Of a DNA stretch of 37,440 bases, positions 4,882-37,113 are shown in pieces. Both the position numbers and the translations under genes were made by a program. The notes below the pieces were generated by a model. It saw only the letters and a list, made by a program, of their open reading frames with translations, searched no databases and had not been told where the DNA came from. The DNA is taken from the IMG/VR virus record IMGVR_UViG_2541047705_000012; one strand, written 5' to 3'. Positions within the stretch are counted from its first letter, which is position 1, and every line of letters begins with the position of its first letter. Source of the DNA: a virus. Its lineage: Duplodnaviria > Heunggongvirae > Uroviricota > Caudoviricetes.

Positions 4882-5960
4882 CAGAACGGGTCCTCCTGTA
4901 CTCTGGCTTTTTTCTTTTTCCGCGCGCCGGGGGCTTCGGGTTCAGGCAGATAAGCATCAGGTGGGCCGACACGGATTTCCGTCAGGGTGCCGTTCTGGTC
5001 CTGAGTAAACGTGACTTCCGAGACAAGCAGTTCGGTATTGTCGAAACCACAGACCGGATCGAAGACAATCACCCGCTGGTTGGGCTGCCACAGCGTACCG
5101 TTACCCTGTCGCCAGCCCTGCACCACATAGGTGGTTTCATCCGTCCGCGCCGCCCGTTGTCGGGCTTCAAAGTCAGCACGCGCAATACAGCCTGCCCCCG
5201 TAGCCTGCCCTGTCTGCCTGATATACATCGGACGGTAACGGGCAATAAATGCGTCCTCTGTGCGGGCCCGCAGCGCGCTGGTGGTGGCCTCACCGAAATC
5301 ATCGTCGTTTCCAGCACGCTGCCCCGCCACCTGGTAAACAGAAAACCGCTCCCGGATACTCTTCTCCGTATCGCAGGAAAGGATGTTTTCCCCGAGTACC
5401 AGCGCAGTATGTGCCCGCGTTGAGCCAATACCGCCAATCACCAGCCTGCCGTGTGGGTCGTCGTAAGCCAGTGCCTGCTGCTGACCGAGTATTTTGTTGA
5501 TTACCTCAATCACCGTTTCACCGTGATCGGGCTGGACGTCAGGAATAACACCCGACGGCGCACCGTTGTTCACCACCTCAATGCCGAAAGGCGCAGCAAG
5601 CGCCTGCGCAATCTGTACCAGCGATCGTCCGTTAAACTGTGTCGGTTCGGCTGCACAGTCAATCAGGTCAGCGGTCAGACTGCGTCCGGCAATACCGGTG
5701 CTGACCGAACGGGCATCGTAACGAACGGGCGTCGCCTCCACCCAGCCGGTGATCACCAGCTCATCACCAATCAGCACCTCCACTTTTGAACCGTTTTTAA
5801 TGCGCGGCTGAAGCGTGGTGATACCCTCATCACCCGGCCACTGGCGGGTGATCTCCACACTGAAATCCCGCGCCAGCCGTTCAATACCGGCACCGATGCG
5901 CACCGATGTCCAGCCATTCCACTCCCGGCCATTTACCCGTAGCGTGACGTTATCGTTCAT
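4881..5960 (-). CDS. Baseplate hub protein (Mu gp44 / P2 gpD-like)
   Basis: 359-aa ORF immediately downstream of the DNA circulation gene. Confidence 0.65.
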   Translation of the reverse strand: MNDNVTLRVNGREWNGWTSVRIGAGIERLARDFSVEITRQWPGDEGITTLQPRIKNGSKVEVLIGDELVITGWVEATPVRYDARSVSTGIAGRSLTADLIDCAAEPTQFNGRSLVQIAQALAAPFGIEVVNNGAPSGVIPDVQPDHGETVIEVINKILGQQQALAYDDPHGRLVIGGIGSTRAHTALVLGENILSCDTEKSIRERFSVYQVAGQRAGNDDDFGEATTSALRARTEDAFIARYRPMYIRQTGQATGAGCIARADFEARQRAARTDETTYVVQGWRQGNGTLWQPNQRVIVFDPVCGFDNTELLVSEVTFTQDQNGTLTEIRVGPPDAYLPEPEAPGARKKKKARVQEDPF

Positions 5961-28978: not shown

Positions 28979-29056
28979 TGTACCTCCAGTGTACATATTA
29001 CATGATTGAAATGAACCTTCAAGATACTTGTACCTTAACGGTACAAGGGTTTTAAT
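28979..29056. promoter_or_regulatory. Right operator/promoter region: divergent pR (cro) and pRM (cI) with two GTAC-type palindromic operators
   Basis: Palindromes TGTACctccagTGTACA (28979-28995) and CTTGTACCttaacGGTACAAG (29027-29047). pR on the minus strand: -35 TTGAAG (29017-29022), -10 TAATAT (28995-29000). pRM on the plus strand: -35 TTGTAC (29028-29033), -10 TTTAAT (29051-29056), ending 7 nt before the cI ATG, so cI may be leaderless. Confidence 0.45.
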
Positions 29057-29062
29057 TTCGTT

Positions 29063-29737
29063 ATGAAAACAATCCATGACATCCGGCGGTCTAACGCCAG
29101 AAAACTGAGAGATGGTGTTGGCGGGAATTCTTCCTTTGCCACTATGATTGATCGCGAGCCAACCCAGACCAGCAGGTTTATGGGAGATGGTGCTACTAAA
29201 AATATCGGTGACAGCATGGCACGACACATCGAAAAATGTTTCGACCTGCCTGTCGGATGGCTCGATCAAGAACACCAGACAACGAACATCACAAAAAAAC
29301 CTGATGTTTCAATCACTAATAAACAAATCACATTAGTCCCTGTCATATCATGGGTACAGGCCGGAGCATGGAAAGAAGTTGGATATTCTGAGGTTGATTT
29401 GAGCACAGCAGAAACGTATCCCTGCCCTGTACCCTGTGGGGAAATGACTTATATCTTGCGGGTGATAGGTGATTCAATGATTGATGAGTACCGCCCGGGA
29501 GACATGATTTTTGTCGATCCTGAAGTACCTGCCTGCCACGGTGACGACGTTATTGCATTGATGCACGATACAGGTGAAACCACCTTCAAAAGGTTGATAG
29601 AAGATGGGACACAGCGTTATCTCAAAGCGTTAAACCCAAACTGGCCTGAGCCTTACATTAAGATCAACGGTAATTGCTCTATAATTGGTACTGTGATTTT
29701 CTCAGGAAAACCAAGAAGATACAAAATCAAAGCCTAA
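29063..29737 (+). CDS. cI: CI-type repressor (N-terminal HTH, C-terminal S24 LexA-like autopeptidase domain)
   Basis: 224-aa ORF with the S24 serine motif (VIGDSM) and a downstream Lys; divergent from cro-like. Confidence 0.85.
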   Translation: MKTIHDIRRSNARKLRDGVGGNSSFATMIDREPTQTSRFMGDGATKNIGDSMARHIEKCFDLPVGWLDQEHQTTNITKKPDVSITNKQITLVPVISWVQAGAWKEVGYSEVDLSTAETYPCPVPCGEMTYILRVIGDSMIDEYRPGDMIFVDPEVPACHGDDVIALMHDTGETTFKRLIEDGTQRYLKALNPNWPEPYIKINGNCSIIGTVIFSGKPRRYKIKA

Positions 29738-29749
29738 TCAATGTTTATG

Positions 29750-29773
29750 AACCTGCTTCGGCAGGTTTTTTTA
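29750..29773 (+). terminator. Intrinsic terminator after cI
   Basis: Stem AACCTGC/GCAGGTT with loop TTCG followed by TTTTTTT. Confidence 0.7.
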
Positions 29774-29887
29774 TACTTGACAATGTACCTTTGGGATACA
29801 TAATGTACCCAAGAGAAACAACAAACAGGCAGGACGCCCACGAAGTAGCCGCCTGGGGCATATGAAGTCCAGGATGATTCGTTAGCA

Positions 29888-29912
29888 ACAAAAAAGCGCC
29901 CTATAGGACGCT
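29888..29912 (-). terminator. Intrinsic terminator after the minus-strand gene 29940-30452
   Basis: Hairpin GCGTCCTATAGGGCGC followed by TTTTTTGTTGC on the minus strand. Confidence 0.55.
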
Positions 29913-29939
29913 TCGCTCTTTAACAATCTGGATGACTTA

Positions 29940-30452
29940 TTACTCAGATTTGAACTTTGGTTCTGGCAAAAGAGGAGGAGTTGAGTCCTCGAATCGTAGC
30001 CAGTGCTCCCAGATATCGTGGGATTGTAATTCCAGAAGACCAATTTGACGTGATGCAACTGCAGTGCCAGCTATAGTTCCTCCTGCATAATCAACCTGGA
30101 CGGACTTTGACGCTTTCTCAATTAATTCTGTCCAAGCTTCACTTTCCGCGTTAAAAGAAGCAGTTAATTCCTGCAGACGCTGTGGATCATCCTTGTTGTC
30201 TTGTTTCAAACGATTCAGGGCGGCCACCGAATACTTATTCTTAACCCAACTAACCTGAGCTAACTGAACTCTCTGACAAGCGTCCATATCAGTAGTTGTT
30301 TCCTGAGGCATATCAAAGCAGGAAATAAAAAAAGTCTCAACACCATCATTTAGACTACTGCTCGGCTGGTTCAAAGCATCAGAAGCATTGGATGCTATCG
30401 GTATTATCAGTGCTACCGACAGAATCAAACGTTTAACATAAATCGCTCCCAT
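29940..30452 (-). CDS. Secreted/periplasmic protein with N-terminal signal peptide; weak resemblance to the DUF1311/LprI family is a guess
   Basis: 170-aa ORF convergent with cI, with its own terminator; hydrophobic N-terminus (LILSVALIIPIASNA). Confidence 0.45.
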   Translation of the reverse strand: MGAIYVKRLILSVALIIPIASNASDALNQPSSSLNDGVETFFISCFDMPQETTTDMDACQRVQLAQVSWVKNKYSVAALNRLKQDNKDDPQRLQELTASFNAESEAWTELIEKASKSVQVDYAGGTIAGTAVASRQIGLLELQSHDIWEHWLRFEDSTPPLLPEPKFKSE

Positions 30453-30739
30453 TTAATTATCCCCTCTAAGAACAGAGTCATCCAGATTAGCCGAATCCTT
30501 GTTGTTGGGGAATAACCAGGCCCACCTCGCCTGATGTGGCTAAAAGCAGGCACATAACAGCTAAGTATTTTCAACCAGAGAGAATCCTTAGCGTTGTGGT
30601 GAATGCGGCTCAGCGCACGCGGGTTAAGGTTGAGGCTGACAGTCGACCTTCTGTGGATACCCACCCGCCTGGTGTGCAACCTTCGCCAGGCACCGGGAGG
30701 CACCCGGCACCACAACTTTATGCTGTGTGTAGTCCTGGC

Positions 30740-30871
30740 GGTACCAGCTTGTACCCTTGCTTCCGGCTGGTACCGCTCTTTTTACAAAACAGAGAAGAGC
30801 ATCACCGGACGACGGGCTCATAACCCAATCCACCCGGGCGGCTGCCACCGCAGGTGTTCTTCTCTGTTTTG
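30740..30871 (+). promoter_or_regulatory. Early-left control region: GTAC-type operator-like palindrome, boxA-like motif and a large stem-loop
   Basis: GGTACCAGCTTGTACC (30740-30755); CGCTCTTTTTA (30774-30784); perfect 14-bp stem CAAAACAGAGAAGA (30785-30798) pairing with TCTTCTCTGTTTTG (30858-30871) around a GC-rich 59-nt loop. No N-like ORF is present. Confidence 0.4.
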
Positions 30872-30920
30872 TGGAGAAACCAACCGACCTTGCAGGGTCG
30901 ATATGATGAGGAGCAGCAAA

Positions 30921-31283
30921 ATGGCTAGCGAACGCAGTACCAACGTGCAGGAATTTATCGGGGAGCTGGACGGCGGCGTATTTGAAACCAAAATCGGCGC
31001 AGTTCTCAGTGAAGTCGCTTCCGGTGTGATGAACACGAAAACCAAAGGTAAGGTCTCGCTCAACCTGGAAATCGAACCGTTTGATGAGAACCGTGTGAAA
31101 ATAAAACACAAACTCTCATATGTTCGTCCGACTAACCGCGGGAAAATTTCCGAAGAAGACACCACCGAAACGCCGATGTATGTCAATCGCGGTGGTCGCC
31201 TGACTATTCTGCAGGAAGACCAGGGACAATTACTGACTCTTGCCGGTGAACCTGACGGAAAACTCCGCGCAGCAGGTCATTAA
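30921..31283 (+). CDS. Hypothetical early-left protein (recalled as YfdP-like)
   Basis: 120-aa product from the internal ATG at 30921 (GAGGAG 7 nt upstream); the long upstream extension of ORF 30603-31283 runs through the regulatory region and is rejected. Confidence 0.5.
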   Translation: MASERSTNVQEFIGELDGGVFETKIGAVLSEVASGVMNTKTKGKVSLNLEIEPFDENRVKIKHKLSYVRPTNRGKISEEDTTETPMYVNRGGRLTILQEDQGQLLTLAGEPDGKLRAAGH

Positions 31284-32825: not shown

Positions 32826-32933
32826 AAATCAGCACGTACGAATTCAAACTCTGCCATAAAAGAACATATAAGTAATTTATTAACATATAGATATAGGTTA
32901 TATTACAAATTGAAAAATTATTGGAGAGCAACA

Positions 32934-33800
32934 ATGAATCAAAATCCATTCTCATTCTATGACTTTCTTGGATATTTAATACCAGGTGGTTTTTTTATCC
33001 TATTAATGTATTTCTGTGGTTTGACATTCGATCTAGATATTGTTATTGACTTAAGTGAATTGCTCAGAGGTCAAAGTCAAATCTTTGGCATTTTGAACTA
33101 CGCTTCAATAGTTATTATATCTTATATAGCTGGACATTTTATTTCTATCACGTCAGCATTTTTTATCGAAAAATACATGAATAAAGAATTAGGATATCCT
33201 TCCAAATATCTATTTAAAAAATTGATAGATACCTCAGAAAGCATTTGTAGCCCATCATGCGATGAGAGAAGCGCTGATAAAAAAACAAAAATAAAGAATC
33301 GCATAATCAAATGCGTATTATGTCCAATAATACTATGGGATTTTATAACACAAAAACTATGTTATTCTCAATCTCTACCATTTCATTTAGCTAATACAAC
33401 ATGGTTAATGATCAAAGAAGGTTATGAGAAAAAGTTCATAACAAATCGCCAATTATTACAAGATAAAAACGGACTTGATGATGATCTCTTCAGATTGGCA
33501 TATCATTATGTTTATGAGTTTTCAAAACAACATCAAACAAAAATTCAAAACTATGTTGCATTATATGGTTTTTGCAGAAACATATGTTTAATCTTTATAA
33601 TTTCATTTTGGGTATCAGTTCCAACCTTTATTTATCGATTATGTACTCATAGTGATTATCTTTATAGTTTACTTTCAATAATGCTTAGCTTTTTCTTCGT
33701 CTATGTTTTCTATGTTGGTTTTGTTAAATTTTATAGAAGATATACTTTAGAAGTATTAATGGCATTTGCTGTACTTCAAAGTAACGACACTATTCGTTAA
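32934..33800 (+). CDS. Low-GC integral membrane protein (two N-terminal and two C-terminal predicted transmembrane helices around a ~130-aa soluble domain); candidate superinfection-exclusion or abortive-infection gene
   Basis: Start at the ATG at 32934 (GGAG 7 nt upstream); own AT-rich promoter-like sequence (-10 TATATT at 32899-32904); no family recognised. Confidence 0.5.
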   Translation: MNQNPFSFYDFLGYLIPGGFFILLMYFCGLTFDLDIVIDLSELLRGQSQIFGILNYASIVIISYIAGHFISITSAFFIEKYMNKELGYPSKYLFKKLIDTSESICSPSCDERSADKKTKIKNRIIKCVLCPIILWDFITQKLCYSQSLPFHLANTTWLMIKEGYEKKFITNRQLLQDKNGLDDDLFRLAYHYVYEFSKQHQTKIQNYVALYGFCRNICLIFIISFWVSVPTFIYRLCTHSDYLYSLLSIMLSFFFVYVFYVGFVKFYRRYTLEVLMAFAVLQSNDTIR

Positions 33801-34048: not shown

Positions 34049-34209
34049 CAATCAGGAAACACCACCAGGGAGAAACGATCAATATAACTTTCACCTACAA
34101 AGGAGTTAGATGTCGTGAGCCGCTTTCCAATCTGGAAGTAACACCAAAGAACATTAAATACGCCGAGTGAACCGCCCCGGGTTTCCTGGAGAGTGTTTTA
34201 TCTGTGAAC

Positions 34210-35100
34210 TCAGGCTGCCAGATCATCGTTTCCGATGGAAGCATAATAAGCTTTTTCTGCTTCTGCCGGAGGAGTATGGCCCAGCCTTTCCAGCAATCGT
34301 CGATTGTTATACCAGTCCACCCACGTGAGTGTGGCCAGTTCCACTTCTGCACGGTTTTTCCAGCTCTTACGGTGTATTACCTCCGCTTTGTAAAGACCAT
34401 TGATGCTCTCCGCCATCGCGTTGTCATACGAGTCGCCTGTACTTCCTGTTGATGCCAGTAATCCGGCTTCCTTAAGCCGCTGTGTGTAGGCCAGCGATAC
34501 ATACTGAGAACCTTTATCACTGTGATGGACCGTGCCGGACGGTCGACGGGCCCATAACGCCTGCTCCAGTGCATCCAGCACGAATGTCGTTTCCATGGAC
34601 GATGAGACCCGCCACCCCACGATGTATCCGGCAAACACATCAATGATGAACGCCACATAGACGAAGCCCCGCCATGTGCTGACGTAAGTAAAATCAGCCA
34701 CCCACAGCTGGTCAGGTCGTTCTGCCACGAACTGACGGTTTACGCGGTCGCCTGCGGCAACGGCTTTCCGGCTGATGGTCGTACGGACCTTTTTACCCCG
34801 GAGAACACCGGCAAGTCCCATAACCGCCATGAGACGTGCCACAGTGCATCTGGCCACTCTGATACCTTCCCGTAACAACTGACGCCAGACTTTACGCACA
34901 CCGTATACCTTGTGATTTTCATCGTATACGCGCTGTATCTCTTTCTTCAGCCAGTCATCGCGCTGCGCACGGGCACTGCGTTTATCCGGATGATGTCGCT
35001 GTTGCTGACAGTGGTAATACGTTGACGGGGCAATATGCAGTTCGCTGCATAGCGGTCCGACCCCGTACTGCTCACGCAGCTTATCCAGCAGTGGCATCAT
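34210..35100 (-). CDS. IS3-family transposase OrfB (DDE integrase domain)
   Basis: 296-aa ORF in the -1 frame relative to orfA, starting within the A-run at the orfA 3-prime end. Confidence 0.85.
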
Positions 35101-35423
35101 TTTTTCCAGAGGCGGTCGAACTCCGCCTTCGCAAAATAAGCGGAAGCCTGGCGAAGGATATCGTTACTGCGGCGCAGTTCACGATTTTCACGTTCCAGCT
35201 CTTTCAGACGCTGACGTTCAGCGGTGGTGAGCCCTCCATCACCGCCCCCGGTATCCCGCTCATGCTGGCGAACCCAGACACGCAGAGTCTCCGGCGTACA
35301 GCCAATCTTTGGAGCAATGGAACAAATTGTCGCCCATTGTGAGTCATATTCGCTCTGACTTTCCAGAACCATACGGACTGCCCGTTGACGGACTTCGGGG
35401 GAAAAACGAGTATTTTTAGTCAT
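35097..35423 (-). CDS. IS3-family transposase OrfA (HTH and leucine zipper)
   Basis: 108-aa ORF ending in WKK at an AAAAAA run, typical of the OrfA/OrfB frameshift window. Confidence 0.85.
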
Positions 35424-36485
35424 CCTGTTTACCTCTTTCTCAGGAAGTTTAGTCTCCAGGATTCCCGGGGCGGTTCAGAGCGTACACTCGGCGAAATCCA
35501 TAATAAGATCGAAAGGGGAACATTCATTTATGCAGAATATTTTCCCCGTTCTGCTCGTTTGAAAATTTTTGGTAATGCTGCTGCAAGCAAAACGGTAAAG
35601 ATGTACCTGGACGAATATCTTGAAATCTGCGAAACAAGAAAACTTTCACCCTCTACGATTGGTGGCTATAAAAAATGCCGTAGTGCGTTAGCCTCACTTC
35701 ACATTTGCCCTGCAAGTGAATTAACACCAGCAACCCTGAAAGCGTGGATTCAAAGCCAGAAAACAACCTTAAAAACCATTCGCAACCAGTTATCTTTCCT
35801 ACGGTCAGCACTTGATGAAGCCGTGACCGATGGGGTACTTCAAATTAACCCCGTATCGTTAGTAACAGCTTCGCGCTACCAAAGTGATAAGTCAGAAGCA
35901 GAAAGCAGCTATGTGGTTGATCCGCTATCACCAGCAGAAGTTGATGCATTACTAGCAGCAGCCGGAAACAAACAATGGGAAAATCTGTTCCGGTTCGCCA
36001 TACATACAGGCCTGCGTAGTTCTGAATTATGTGCCCTACGATGGCATGATATCGACTTTGTTGGAAAAACAGCCCATGTTCAGAGCGCAAGTGTTGTCGG
36101 AGTTATCAAAGGAACAAAGACAAAAGCCGGTACCCGTAAAGTTGAACTGACTGAAGAAGCAATGTTGGCGTTGATAAACCAGAAGCCATTTACATTCATG
36201 AAGGATGCTACTGTCTTTGAAGATCCAAAGACCAATAAACCCTGGGCAAGTGCTGATGCAATTAGGAAAAAAGCATGGGTGCCAACATTGCGAAAAGCAG
36301 GTATTCGTTACAGAAACCCATATCAAACCAGGCATACATTCGCCACCAGCCATATCAGCCGGGGAGCAAACCTGTTTTGGCTTGCGGCTCAAATGGGCCA
36401 TAAAGGGCCTGAAATGTTATTCAGGCACTATGGACAATACTTGAAAGAGTATGATGGGAGGGCAAGTATCAAGGATAAAAAGGCT

Positions 36486-37103
36486 TTATTTTAAGTCATT
36501 ATGCCAATCGTCTACTGTTTGAAACCAAATTTTTAACCTTTGCATAAAGGTACGATCCTTTTTGGGAGGGTGGTACCTTTGAAAAGAAGTATGTAACGCT
36601 TCGATAACTCCCATACAAGCATCAATTACTTCTTGTGCTTTAACCGGGCGATCGGCATCTGAAAGCTTGTGAGCGACCTCACAATCCAGAGTTGCTTTCT
36701 CTAGTACAGATGAGAACACCTCGTCAGGTATATACAGTCCTCTGCTTTCCAAAATGCAAATCAGTTTGGAAACTTGTTGAGCTTTAGCCAAGATAGTTAA
36801 CAAGTATGAAACAGAAGCCTTTGTTCTATCCTTTTGCAACCTTAACAATCGATGCTTTGATGCTCTAATTTTAGGTTGAGTTGTCTGACTGAGCCAATAG
36901 TTAGAAGAAATATCAGAAATTTCAATAACTAACTTTGAAATAGCATCAATAATTGATTTCGATTCAGAACGTGTCGCCAGTTTTACAGAATTATTGTACG
37001 CAACTCGCCATCCAATGAAAACTAAGCAGACGCTAACTACTGTGATACACCACGAATACTGTCCTATTTGTGCTACTAATGACATTGGTTCCGTACTGAT
37101 CAA
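36486..37103 (-). CDS. Hypothetical protein with N-terminal transmembrane anchor
   Basis: 205-aa ORF with a TTG start (AAGAGG 6 nt upstream), 10 nt after the upstream stop; convergent with and overlapping the integrase 3-prime end by 9 nt. Confidence 0.4.
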   Translation of the reverse strand: MISTEPMSLVAQIGQYSWCITVVSVCLVFIGWRVAYNNSVKLATRSESKSIIDAISKLVIEISDISSNYWLSQTTQPKIRASKHRLLRLQKDRTKASVSYLLTILAKAQQVSKLICILESRGLYIPDEVFSSVLEKATLDCEVAHKLSDADRPVKAQEVIDACMGVIEALHTSFQRYHPPKKDRTFMQRLKIWFQTVDDWHNDLK

Positions 37104-37113
37104 CTATCGCCTC

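Follow-up and report, generated by a model that had tools for sequence, protein, structure and literature searches.

In phage lambda, the rexAB genes lie between cI and the leftward operator and promoter (OL/PL) and are co-transcribed with cI. A gene next to cI is also the subject here; it is found on a 37,440-nucleotide stretch of viral DNA (IMG/VR record IMGVR_UViG_2541047705_000012, Caudoviricetes), referred to as the window, which represents an e14/SfV-type, Mu-tailed Escherichia coli prophage. The gene encodes a 170-amino-acid protein that is a divergent, prophage-borne member of the known DUF1311/LprI family and is carried in a common cargo hotspot. Several proteins of this kind have been described. 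Mycobacterium tuberculosis LprI (Rv1541c) is a lysozyme inhibitor that also has an MliC domain (PMC7933661). Salmonella ScwA, a periplasmic LprI-domain protein, controls the levels of the lytic transglycosylase MltD (PMC7933661). In enterohaemorrhagic E. coli (EHEC), the DUF1311 protein Etsi4 rescues cells from Etse4, a periplasm-acting toxin of a type VI secretion system (T6SS) (PMC12981562). LprI-domain proteins with signal peptides are predicted to provide immunity to lysozyme-like T6SS effectors in Pantoea (PMC9796082), and others, encoded next to WHIX effectors, are also predicted immunity proteins (PMC12135965). Among phages, T4 encodes Spackle, a small helical periplasmic protein that inhibits the tail lysozyme (PMC7677548).

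The gene and the elements that surround it are the following:

29940..30452, minus strand: open reading frame (ORF) of the exported DUF1311/LprI-like protein, stop codon included; 170 amino acids, ATG start
30384..30452, minus strand: predicted Sec/signal peptidase I signal peptide, codons 1-23 (MGAIYVKR / LILSVALIIPIA / SNA↓SD)
30461..30466, minus strand: Shine-Dalgarno sequence GAGGGG, 8 nt 5' of the ATG and within the variable cassette
30475..30559, minus strand: conserved 5' block of about 80 nt upstream of the cassette, presumed promoter/control region
29884..29914, minus strand: intrinsic terminator, a 9-bp stem (29914..29893) followed by the T-rich run TTTGTTG
29925..29937, no strand assigned: inverted repeat flanking the cassette, left arm AATCTGGATGACT
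30476..30488, no strand assigned: inverted repeat flanking the cassette, right arm AGTCATCCAGATT; perfect over 13 nt, 79% over an extended 24 nt

The ORF is a real gene on which purifying selection acts, since dN/dS (the ratio of nonsynonymous to synonymous change) is 0.11 relative to the Klebsiella prophage copy, despite a difference at 66% of synonymous sites. Its product is listed in RefSeq as a 'hypothetical protein' (WP_000500990.1) and matches phrog_7681, a PHROGs family of unknown function, over its full length (E 1e-120).

To which family does the protein belong? The match to Pfam LprI/DUF1311 (PF07007) is below threshold, with 17.3 bits (E 0.0062, residues 50-137) against a gathering threshold of 22 bits, and close relatives score similarly (P0022, 15.0 bits; P0027, 20.4 bits). 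An initial database search gave about 25 close relatives, all enterobacterial, and one weak PF07007 match; a follow-on profile search reached hundreds of PF07007 proteins, with a Pantoea protein annotated as LprI family and 42% identical as an intermediate. Two alignments were then compared: A2, the core family, which was built without any PF07007 member to avoid circularity, and A3, which consists of 36 proteins with precomputed PF07007 annotation. With hhalign, they match over 142 columns with a probability of 99.9% (E 3e-32). The C-terminal motif H-D-x-W..W-L..D-S-T-P-P-L-L-P-E-P is invariant and common to both sets; in the 170-amino-acid protein the tail reads HDxW..WLR..DSTPPLLPEP. The core family differs from A3 in about 13 extra N-terminal residues and in an 8-residue insertion between helices 1 and 2. 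It keeps only C45 and C59, the third and fourth Cys positions of A3 being occupied by other residues; the four conserved cysteines of the related sub-clade and of ScwA orthologues are not all present in the 170-amino-acid protein.

Across 1.84 billion representatives, a full HMMER scan turned up 494 relatives at E <= 1e-3. Only six of these reach E <= 1e-30, and the phage-associated branch is therefore small. An AlphaFold2 model from a 65-sequence alignment (predicted local distance difference test, pLDDT, 89; predicted template modelling score, pTM, 0.80) has long helices at residues 53-85, 90-121 and 128-152, together with a small sheet to which an N-terminal hairpin and the C-terminal strand contribute; the three-helix bundle of the solved DUF1311 structure is found in this model. 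PDB sequence searches, whether run with the protein alone or with its family profile, produced chance matches only, and PADLOC and NCBIfam gave nothing useful for the protein. The assignment to DUF1311/LprI, which had been tentative in the preliminary description of this locus, can now be regarded as well supported by profile comparison.

The same description had pointed to a cleavable-looking signal peptide, and a rule-based analysis of the N terminus bears this out, with n-, h- and c-regions all recognizable. The n-region MGAIYVKR carries two positive charges (K7 and R8); the h-region LILSVALIIPIA is a hydrophobic core of 12 residues, where the 11-residue Kyte-Doolittle maximum reaches 3.0, compared with 1.2 elsewhere in the protein; and the c-region S-N-A↓S-D satisfies the -3/-1 rule. 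The analysis found neither a lipobox Cys nor a twin-arginine motif in the N terminus. Homologues retain the signal-peptide architecture and vary in the signal sequence itself; in the AlphaFold2 model, pLDDT is about 50 across residues 1-20. The protein is thus predicted to be secreted or periplasmic by way of a Sec signal, and not to be a lipoprotein. After cleavage at SNA↓SD the mature form would have about 147 amino acids and be acidic, with a predicted isoelectric point of about 4.6.

The position of the gene is best understood from the region between it and cI, where these features are found:

29063..29737, plus strand: cI repressor, LexA/S24 type (Peptidase_S24, E 1.5e-26), convergent with the 170-amino-acid ORF
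29749..29768, plus strand: cI terminator, a hairpin and then a T run
29777-29804, plus strand: PL-like promoter TTGACA-16-CATAAT, near-consensus, directly after the cI terminator
29784-29800 and 29804-29820, plus strand: operator-like palindromes TGTACC-N5-GGTACA over the PL-like promoter

The PL-like element as a whole spans 29777..29820 on the plus strand and aims into the cargo gene, in antisense. Its palindromes, of 7-5-7 form, are also present three times in the cro-cI intergenic region (28979-29045); at one mismatch or less, three matches are found in the window versus 0.04 expected, and all are within the PL-like and cro-cI regions. The SfV record annotates operators between cI and cro only. 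The element is immunity-specific, because phages with a different repressor match only from about 29817 onward, and immunity-specific homology stops at about 29816. K-12 e14, whose repressor YmfK (YmfK/CohE) has the same RefSeq accession as the cI of the window (WP_000848748.1), matches the PL-like region at 98.7% identity, promoter included. In e14, ymfJ is the first gene past the equivalent promoter and is SOS-induced late, with other repressor-controlled e14 genes (PMC11002266). From the near-consensus promoter, the palindromes of the cro-cI type, the immunity specificity, the e14 match and the SOS induction of ymfJ, we conclude that the 29777-29820 element is the PL/OL equivalent. Since it is situated between cI and the gene, the cargo gene lies on the far side of PL and runs in antisense to the early-left transcript. 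The preliminary description correctly had the gene convergent with cI (the ORF being on the minus strand and cI on the plus strand), but the rexAB-type position it proposed does not stand: a PL/OL-like element intervenes and the gene is on the opposite strand.

Comparison with related phages by blastn shows a variable cassette at about 29934-30479, which consists of the ORF with 6 nt on its 3' side and 27 nt on its 5' side, the ribosome-binding site included. The sequences on either side are shared. The minus-strand terminator is common to unrelated cargo genes in the same slot, and the 5' block is likewise common to different cargos; relative to the Klebsiella prophage copies, terminator and 5' block are about 95% conserved, whereas the coding sequence is only about 75% identical. 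The whole unit of block, cassette and terminator (window 29891-30559) recurs in a different prophage backbone (L019). Because unrelated cargos have them too, terminator and 5' flank belong to the slot and not to the gene. The gene had been described as having its own terminator; a hairpin and T run are indeed present at 29914..29884 on the minus strand, and they serve the slot and its various cargos. A sigma-E-like reading of the conserved 5' block, judged by eye, was dropped as too weak.

Other occupants of the slot are varied. E. coli CFS3313 and phage PhiR49_1 carry a 171-amino-acid protein with a coiled coil and a zinc ribbon; SfIV has SfIV_36, phage Kati an SfIV-type cassette with the same junctions, SfV orf33 on the other strand, and K-12 e14 ymfJ/ymfI. 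Of 5426 complete E. coli genomes, 1929 (about a third) have the slot flanks, with many different slot lengths. Morons are additional genes that bring a promoter and a terminator of their own and stand between conserved genes of a phage. As with morons, related phages may have or lack the gene between flanks that are conserved, and it is followed by a terminator (29914..29884, minus strand), albeit a slot-wide one. Judged from these sequence comparisons, it is a swappable cargo cassette in a prophage socket, and as such an ordinary kind of passenger gene.

An inverted repeat, AATCTGGATGAC(T), brackets every prophage-borne copy of the LprI-like gene, and unrelated cargos carry inverted repeats of their own that open with the shared core AATCTGG. 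Repeat-bracketed cassettes are present in the window and in six other loci (L004, L015, L019, L009, L008 and L007); the chromosomal copies of the LprI-like gene are without flanking inverted repeats. The repeats might serve in recombination, form an RNA stem or bind a protein. An invertible cassette between them was considered and rejected: there is no sign of inversion, because all four prophage-borne copies examined (window, L004, L015 and L019) share the same orientation.

How did the gene come to be carried by a prophage? The segment 29700-31400 is 100% identical to ATCC 11775, S88, APEC O1 and others, and the LprI-like cargo is found in 144 of the 5426 complete E. coli genomes, always with at least 99% identity. 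Klebsiella and E. albertii prophages have copies at the equivalent position of the immunity region. Chromosomal copies outside prophages are present in Raoultella, Pantoea, Erwinia, Sodalis and Klebsiella, and their existence suggests that a phage captured a resident periplasmic gene. As to the rest of the prophage, positions 1-1448 of the window (the tail-fibre end) show about 75% identity to ATCC 11775 over 350 nt and are otherwise unmatched, and the remainder is 99.5-100% identical to that strain, which is consistent with exchange of a tail-fibre module.

These findings can be combined into an account of what the gene may do, one that is put forward tentatively, as quite possibly but not probably correct. 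A gene taken from an enterobacterial chromosome of the Klebsiella/Raoultella/Pantoea lineage would ride as an ORF-sized cassette in e14/SfV-type prophages, in a socket dedicated to such cargo. This socket would be located just past a cI-repressed PL-like promoter, with the cassette in antisense between a shared 5' block and a shared terminator. In the lysogen PL should be repressed, and for this reason the cassette could be transcribed from the conserved 5' block; upon induction, convergent transcription from PL would silence the cargo. The product, a small acidic soluble protein with a three-helix DUF1311/LprI core, an N-terminal hairpin and an invariant C-terminal tail, would be exported via Sec and would bind a peptidoglycan-cleaving glycosidase of the periplasm stoichiometrically, thereby neutralizing or modulating it. 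Candidate targets are a muramidase or lytic transglycosylase from the T6SS of a competitor, from the tail of a superinfecting phage or from an animal host, and the benefit would go to the lysogen. A glycosidase binder or inhibitor is favoured because the DUF1311/LprI literature centres on peptidoglycan-cutting enzymes and because T4 Spackle offers a precedent.

A number of observations weigh against this account. A position-weight scan for sigma-70 promoters on the minus strand of 30440-30960 gave none above the shuffled background (best score 5.95, mean best of the shuffles 7.4), the 5' block containing only the weak candidate TTCCCC-17-TAATCT. With tblastn, no homologue of the protein was found in 50,697 deposited phage genomes, and a Foldseek search against BFVD gave no meaningful viral structure match. 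The Pfam name 'lysozyme inhibitor' probably goes back to the MliC domain of LprI, a domain that the 170-amino-acid protein does not have, and loss of ScwA left lysozyme sensitivity unchanged (PMC7933661). For the DUF1311 domain, lysozyme inhibition is a Pfam label and not a demonstrated property. Pairwise similarity between the protein and Etsi4 (Sakai ECs_0213) is undetectable. A survey of the neighbourhoods (8 kb on either side) of 80 species-representative loci gave no tblastn match to Hcp, TssC/F/G/K/L/M or Etse4 (VgrG and PAAR were not queried) and showed no neighbour conserved across lineages, synteny being lineage-specific only. The Vibrio and Dyella neighbourhoods of distant relatives have no T6SS genes and no conserved partner. 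Invariance of the C-terminal motif across distant Proteobacteria fits a housekeeping partner better than a toxin-immunity interface, which evolves fast, and looks more like recognition of a partner that is itself conserved.

Much of this bears also on more specific explanations. The protein might be an orphan T6SS immunity protein that provides resistance to a periplasm-acting peptidoglycan hydrolase effector from competing Enterobacteriaceae. The predicted signal peptide places it in the right compartment, the periplasm; but its relatives stand alone on chromosomes and have a motif that does not vary over phyla-level distances, neither the prophage nor the chromosomal contexts contain effectors (no effector, Hcp or T6SS core gene within 8 kb at the 80 loci, VgrG and PAAR not having been searched), and the lack of similarity to Etsi4 adds to the doubt. 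Such a role appears unlikely.

Superinfection exclusion in the manner of Spackle, whereby the tail lysozyme or transglycosylase of incoming phages is inhibited and genome entry blocked, would suit a cargo of an immunity-region hotspot, where other cargos are probably of defence type, e.g. the HSDR_N protein in L019. The predicted periplasmic location agrees with it, as do the focus of DUF1311 work on peptidoglycan glycosidases and the direct precedent in T4 (PMC7677548). Spackle is, however, not found among the PDB sequence or fold matches of the protein, PADLOC gave no match, and chromosomal orthologues outside prophages suggest an older role that is not a phage one. This explanation is likewise given a low probability.

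A third possibility is that the protein modulates cell-wall enzymes of the host, as ScwA does, or serves as a housekeeping periplasmic binder or chaperone, the phage copy then duplicating a chromosomal function with a subtle effect on envelope fitness. The control of MltD levels by ScwA, itself periplasmic and with an LprI domain (PMC7933661), is a model for this, and the wider family, with its stand-alone chromosomal genes, strict DSTPPLLPEP tail, lineage-specific synteny and lack of a toxin partner, is in keeping with it. ScwA differs in architecture, though (275 amino acids, four Cys), and retention of a near-identical gene in the prophage socket of 144 genomes would be hard to account for; the possibility is therefore rated as rather improbable. 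That the protein is an inhibitor of animal lysozyme, and so a virulence or lysogenic-conversion factor, is very unlikely. The Pfam family is indeed named after M. tuberculosis LprI and many of the carriers listed are extraintestinal or avian pathogenic strains (S88, APEC O1, a cerebrospinal fluid isolate and APEC E18055), which may represent clonal inheritance, but no MliC, Ivy or PliG domain is detected in the protein by Pfam at E <= 1 and the ScwA result speaks against it.

To return to the favoured reading, that of a captured periplasmic glycosidase binder expressed in the lysogen, its most far-reaching form would join all parts: a dedicated e14/SfV socket past PL, in which antisense cassettes bracketed by AATCTGG repeats are swapped and are switched off by PL upon induction, and an LprI-like cargo that acts as a lysogen-shielding periplasmic anti-muramidase, either Spackle-like or an orphan T6SS immunity protein. 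In this complete form it is doubtful, with only a small chance of being correct. If the anti-muramidase part were true, a phage-borne protective role would be a first for a DUF1311 protein, and the poorly understood DUF1311 domain would gain a tractable phenotype; if a peptidoglycan-cleaving enzyme is neutralized, a periplasmic anti-muramidase would join the known means by which prophages protect their hosts. The socket architecture offers a compact and widespread place to seek new genes for lysogen benefit or defence.

Other features of the prophage were noted. On the plus strand, 30563-30785 is a full-length match to Rfam STnc100 (RF02076, a family of prophage small RNAs), scoring 45.4 bits (E 1.2e-8) where the gathering score is 47, and ends in a strong intrinsic terminator. 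Relative to shuffled sequences, 30480-30920 folds much more stably on the plus strand (z -5.8), with z -2.5 on the minus strand. The stretch carries protein annotations: RefSeq has a 'frameshifted hypothetical protein', K-12 e14 has ymfH at the equivalent stretch, and in some phage records yfdP is lengthened to a 226-amino-acid ORF. The 226-amino-acid ORF (30603-31283) and the frameshifted RefSeq entry were rejected as real proteins, the stretch being an STnc100-like structured RNA, and the protein annotations over it are probably artefacts of that RNA. At gathering thresholds, Rfam shows no RNA inside the region of the 170-amino-acid gene itself. Another long hairpin (stem of about 25 bp) is present at 30788-30880 on the plus strand, flanked by the STnc100-like terminator and yfdP. 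At its centre, 30813-30842, 30 of 30 positions are identical in a Klebsiella prophage where the surrounding sequence has diverged. In the Klebsiella prophage L004, a longer insert (about 5380-5890) replaces the STnc100-like segment, and it contains a stretch whose reverse complement resembles a tRNA 3' end (GGTTCGAGTCCCGGCGCCACAACCC).

Further along, comparison with ATCC 11775 shows the prophage integrase gene to be disrupted by a 1.3-kb IS3-family element (34167-35478), and the prophage of this strain is probably unable to excise. The element has orfA (HTH_Tnp_1, 35097-35423), orfB (rve, 34210-35100) and an ALIL frameshift pseudoknot (35026-35142, 120 bits). Between yfdR and the integrase, an ORF at 32910-33800 on the plus strand has 296 amino acids from a TTG start (288, hypothetical, in RefSeq) and no Pfam match; its translation looks rich in hydrophobic stretches, possibly a multi-pass membrane protein, and the ORF may represent a further cargo gene. 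Immediately beyond the integrase end of the prophage, 36486-37440 on the minus strand encodes a 205-amino-acid protein with no Pfam match and a STAS-like DUF4325 protein, which may form a small accessory or defence module.

How does the 170-amino-acid protein compare with the described systems? From the DUF1311/LprI family (PF07007; COG3755, YecT-like), represented for example by P. putida PP0307 (PDB 3GI7), it departs in a score below gathering, in lacking the third and fourth conserved Cys, in its extra N-terminal hairpin and insertion, and in being carried by a prophage. M. tuberculosis LprI is alike in that it has a DUF1311 domain and is exported; but LprI is a lipoprotein with an MliC domain that is thought to inhibit lysozyme (PMC7933661), and the protein of the window has neither feature. 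Etsi4 is similarly small, with a signal peptide, a DUF1311-like domain and action in the periplasm, and it also scores below the PF07007 threshold (18.7 bits), yet the 170-amino-acid gene has no adjacent effector or T6SS context. ScwA shares the character of a soluble periplasmic LprI-domain protein and was itself horizontally acquired; its length of 275 amino acids, C-terminal LprI domain, four Cys and location outside prophages set it apart. T4 Spackle is phage-encoded, Sec-exported, small, helical and periplasmic, and its inhibition of the lysozyme gp5 is a mechanism of the kind proposed here (PMC7677548); Spackle belongs to the early genes of a lytic phage, whereas the gene of the window is prophage cargo. 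With lambda rexAB and the lambdoid morons the gene shares its accessory character, its place at the immunity region, its variability among related phages and the presence of a terminator. Unlike rexAB, it is not co-transcribed from PRM but is found beyond a PL/OL-like element, on the strand opposite cI and antisense to the early-left transcript.
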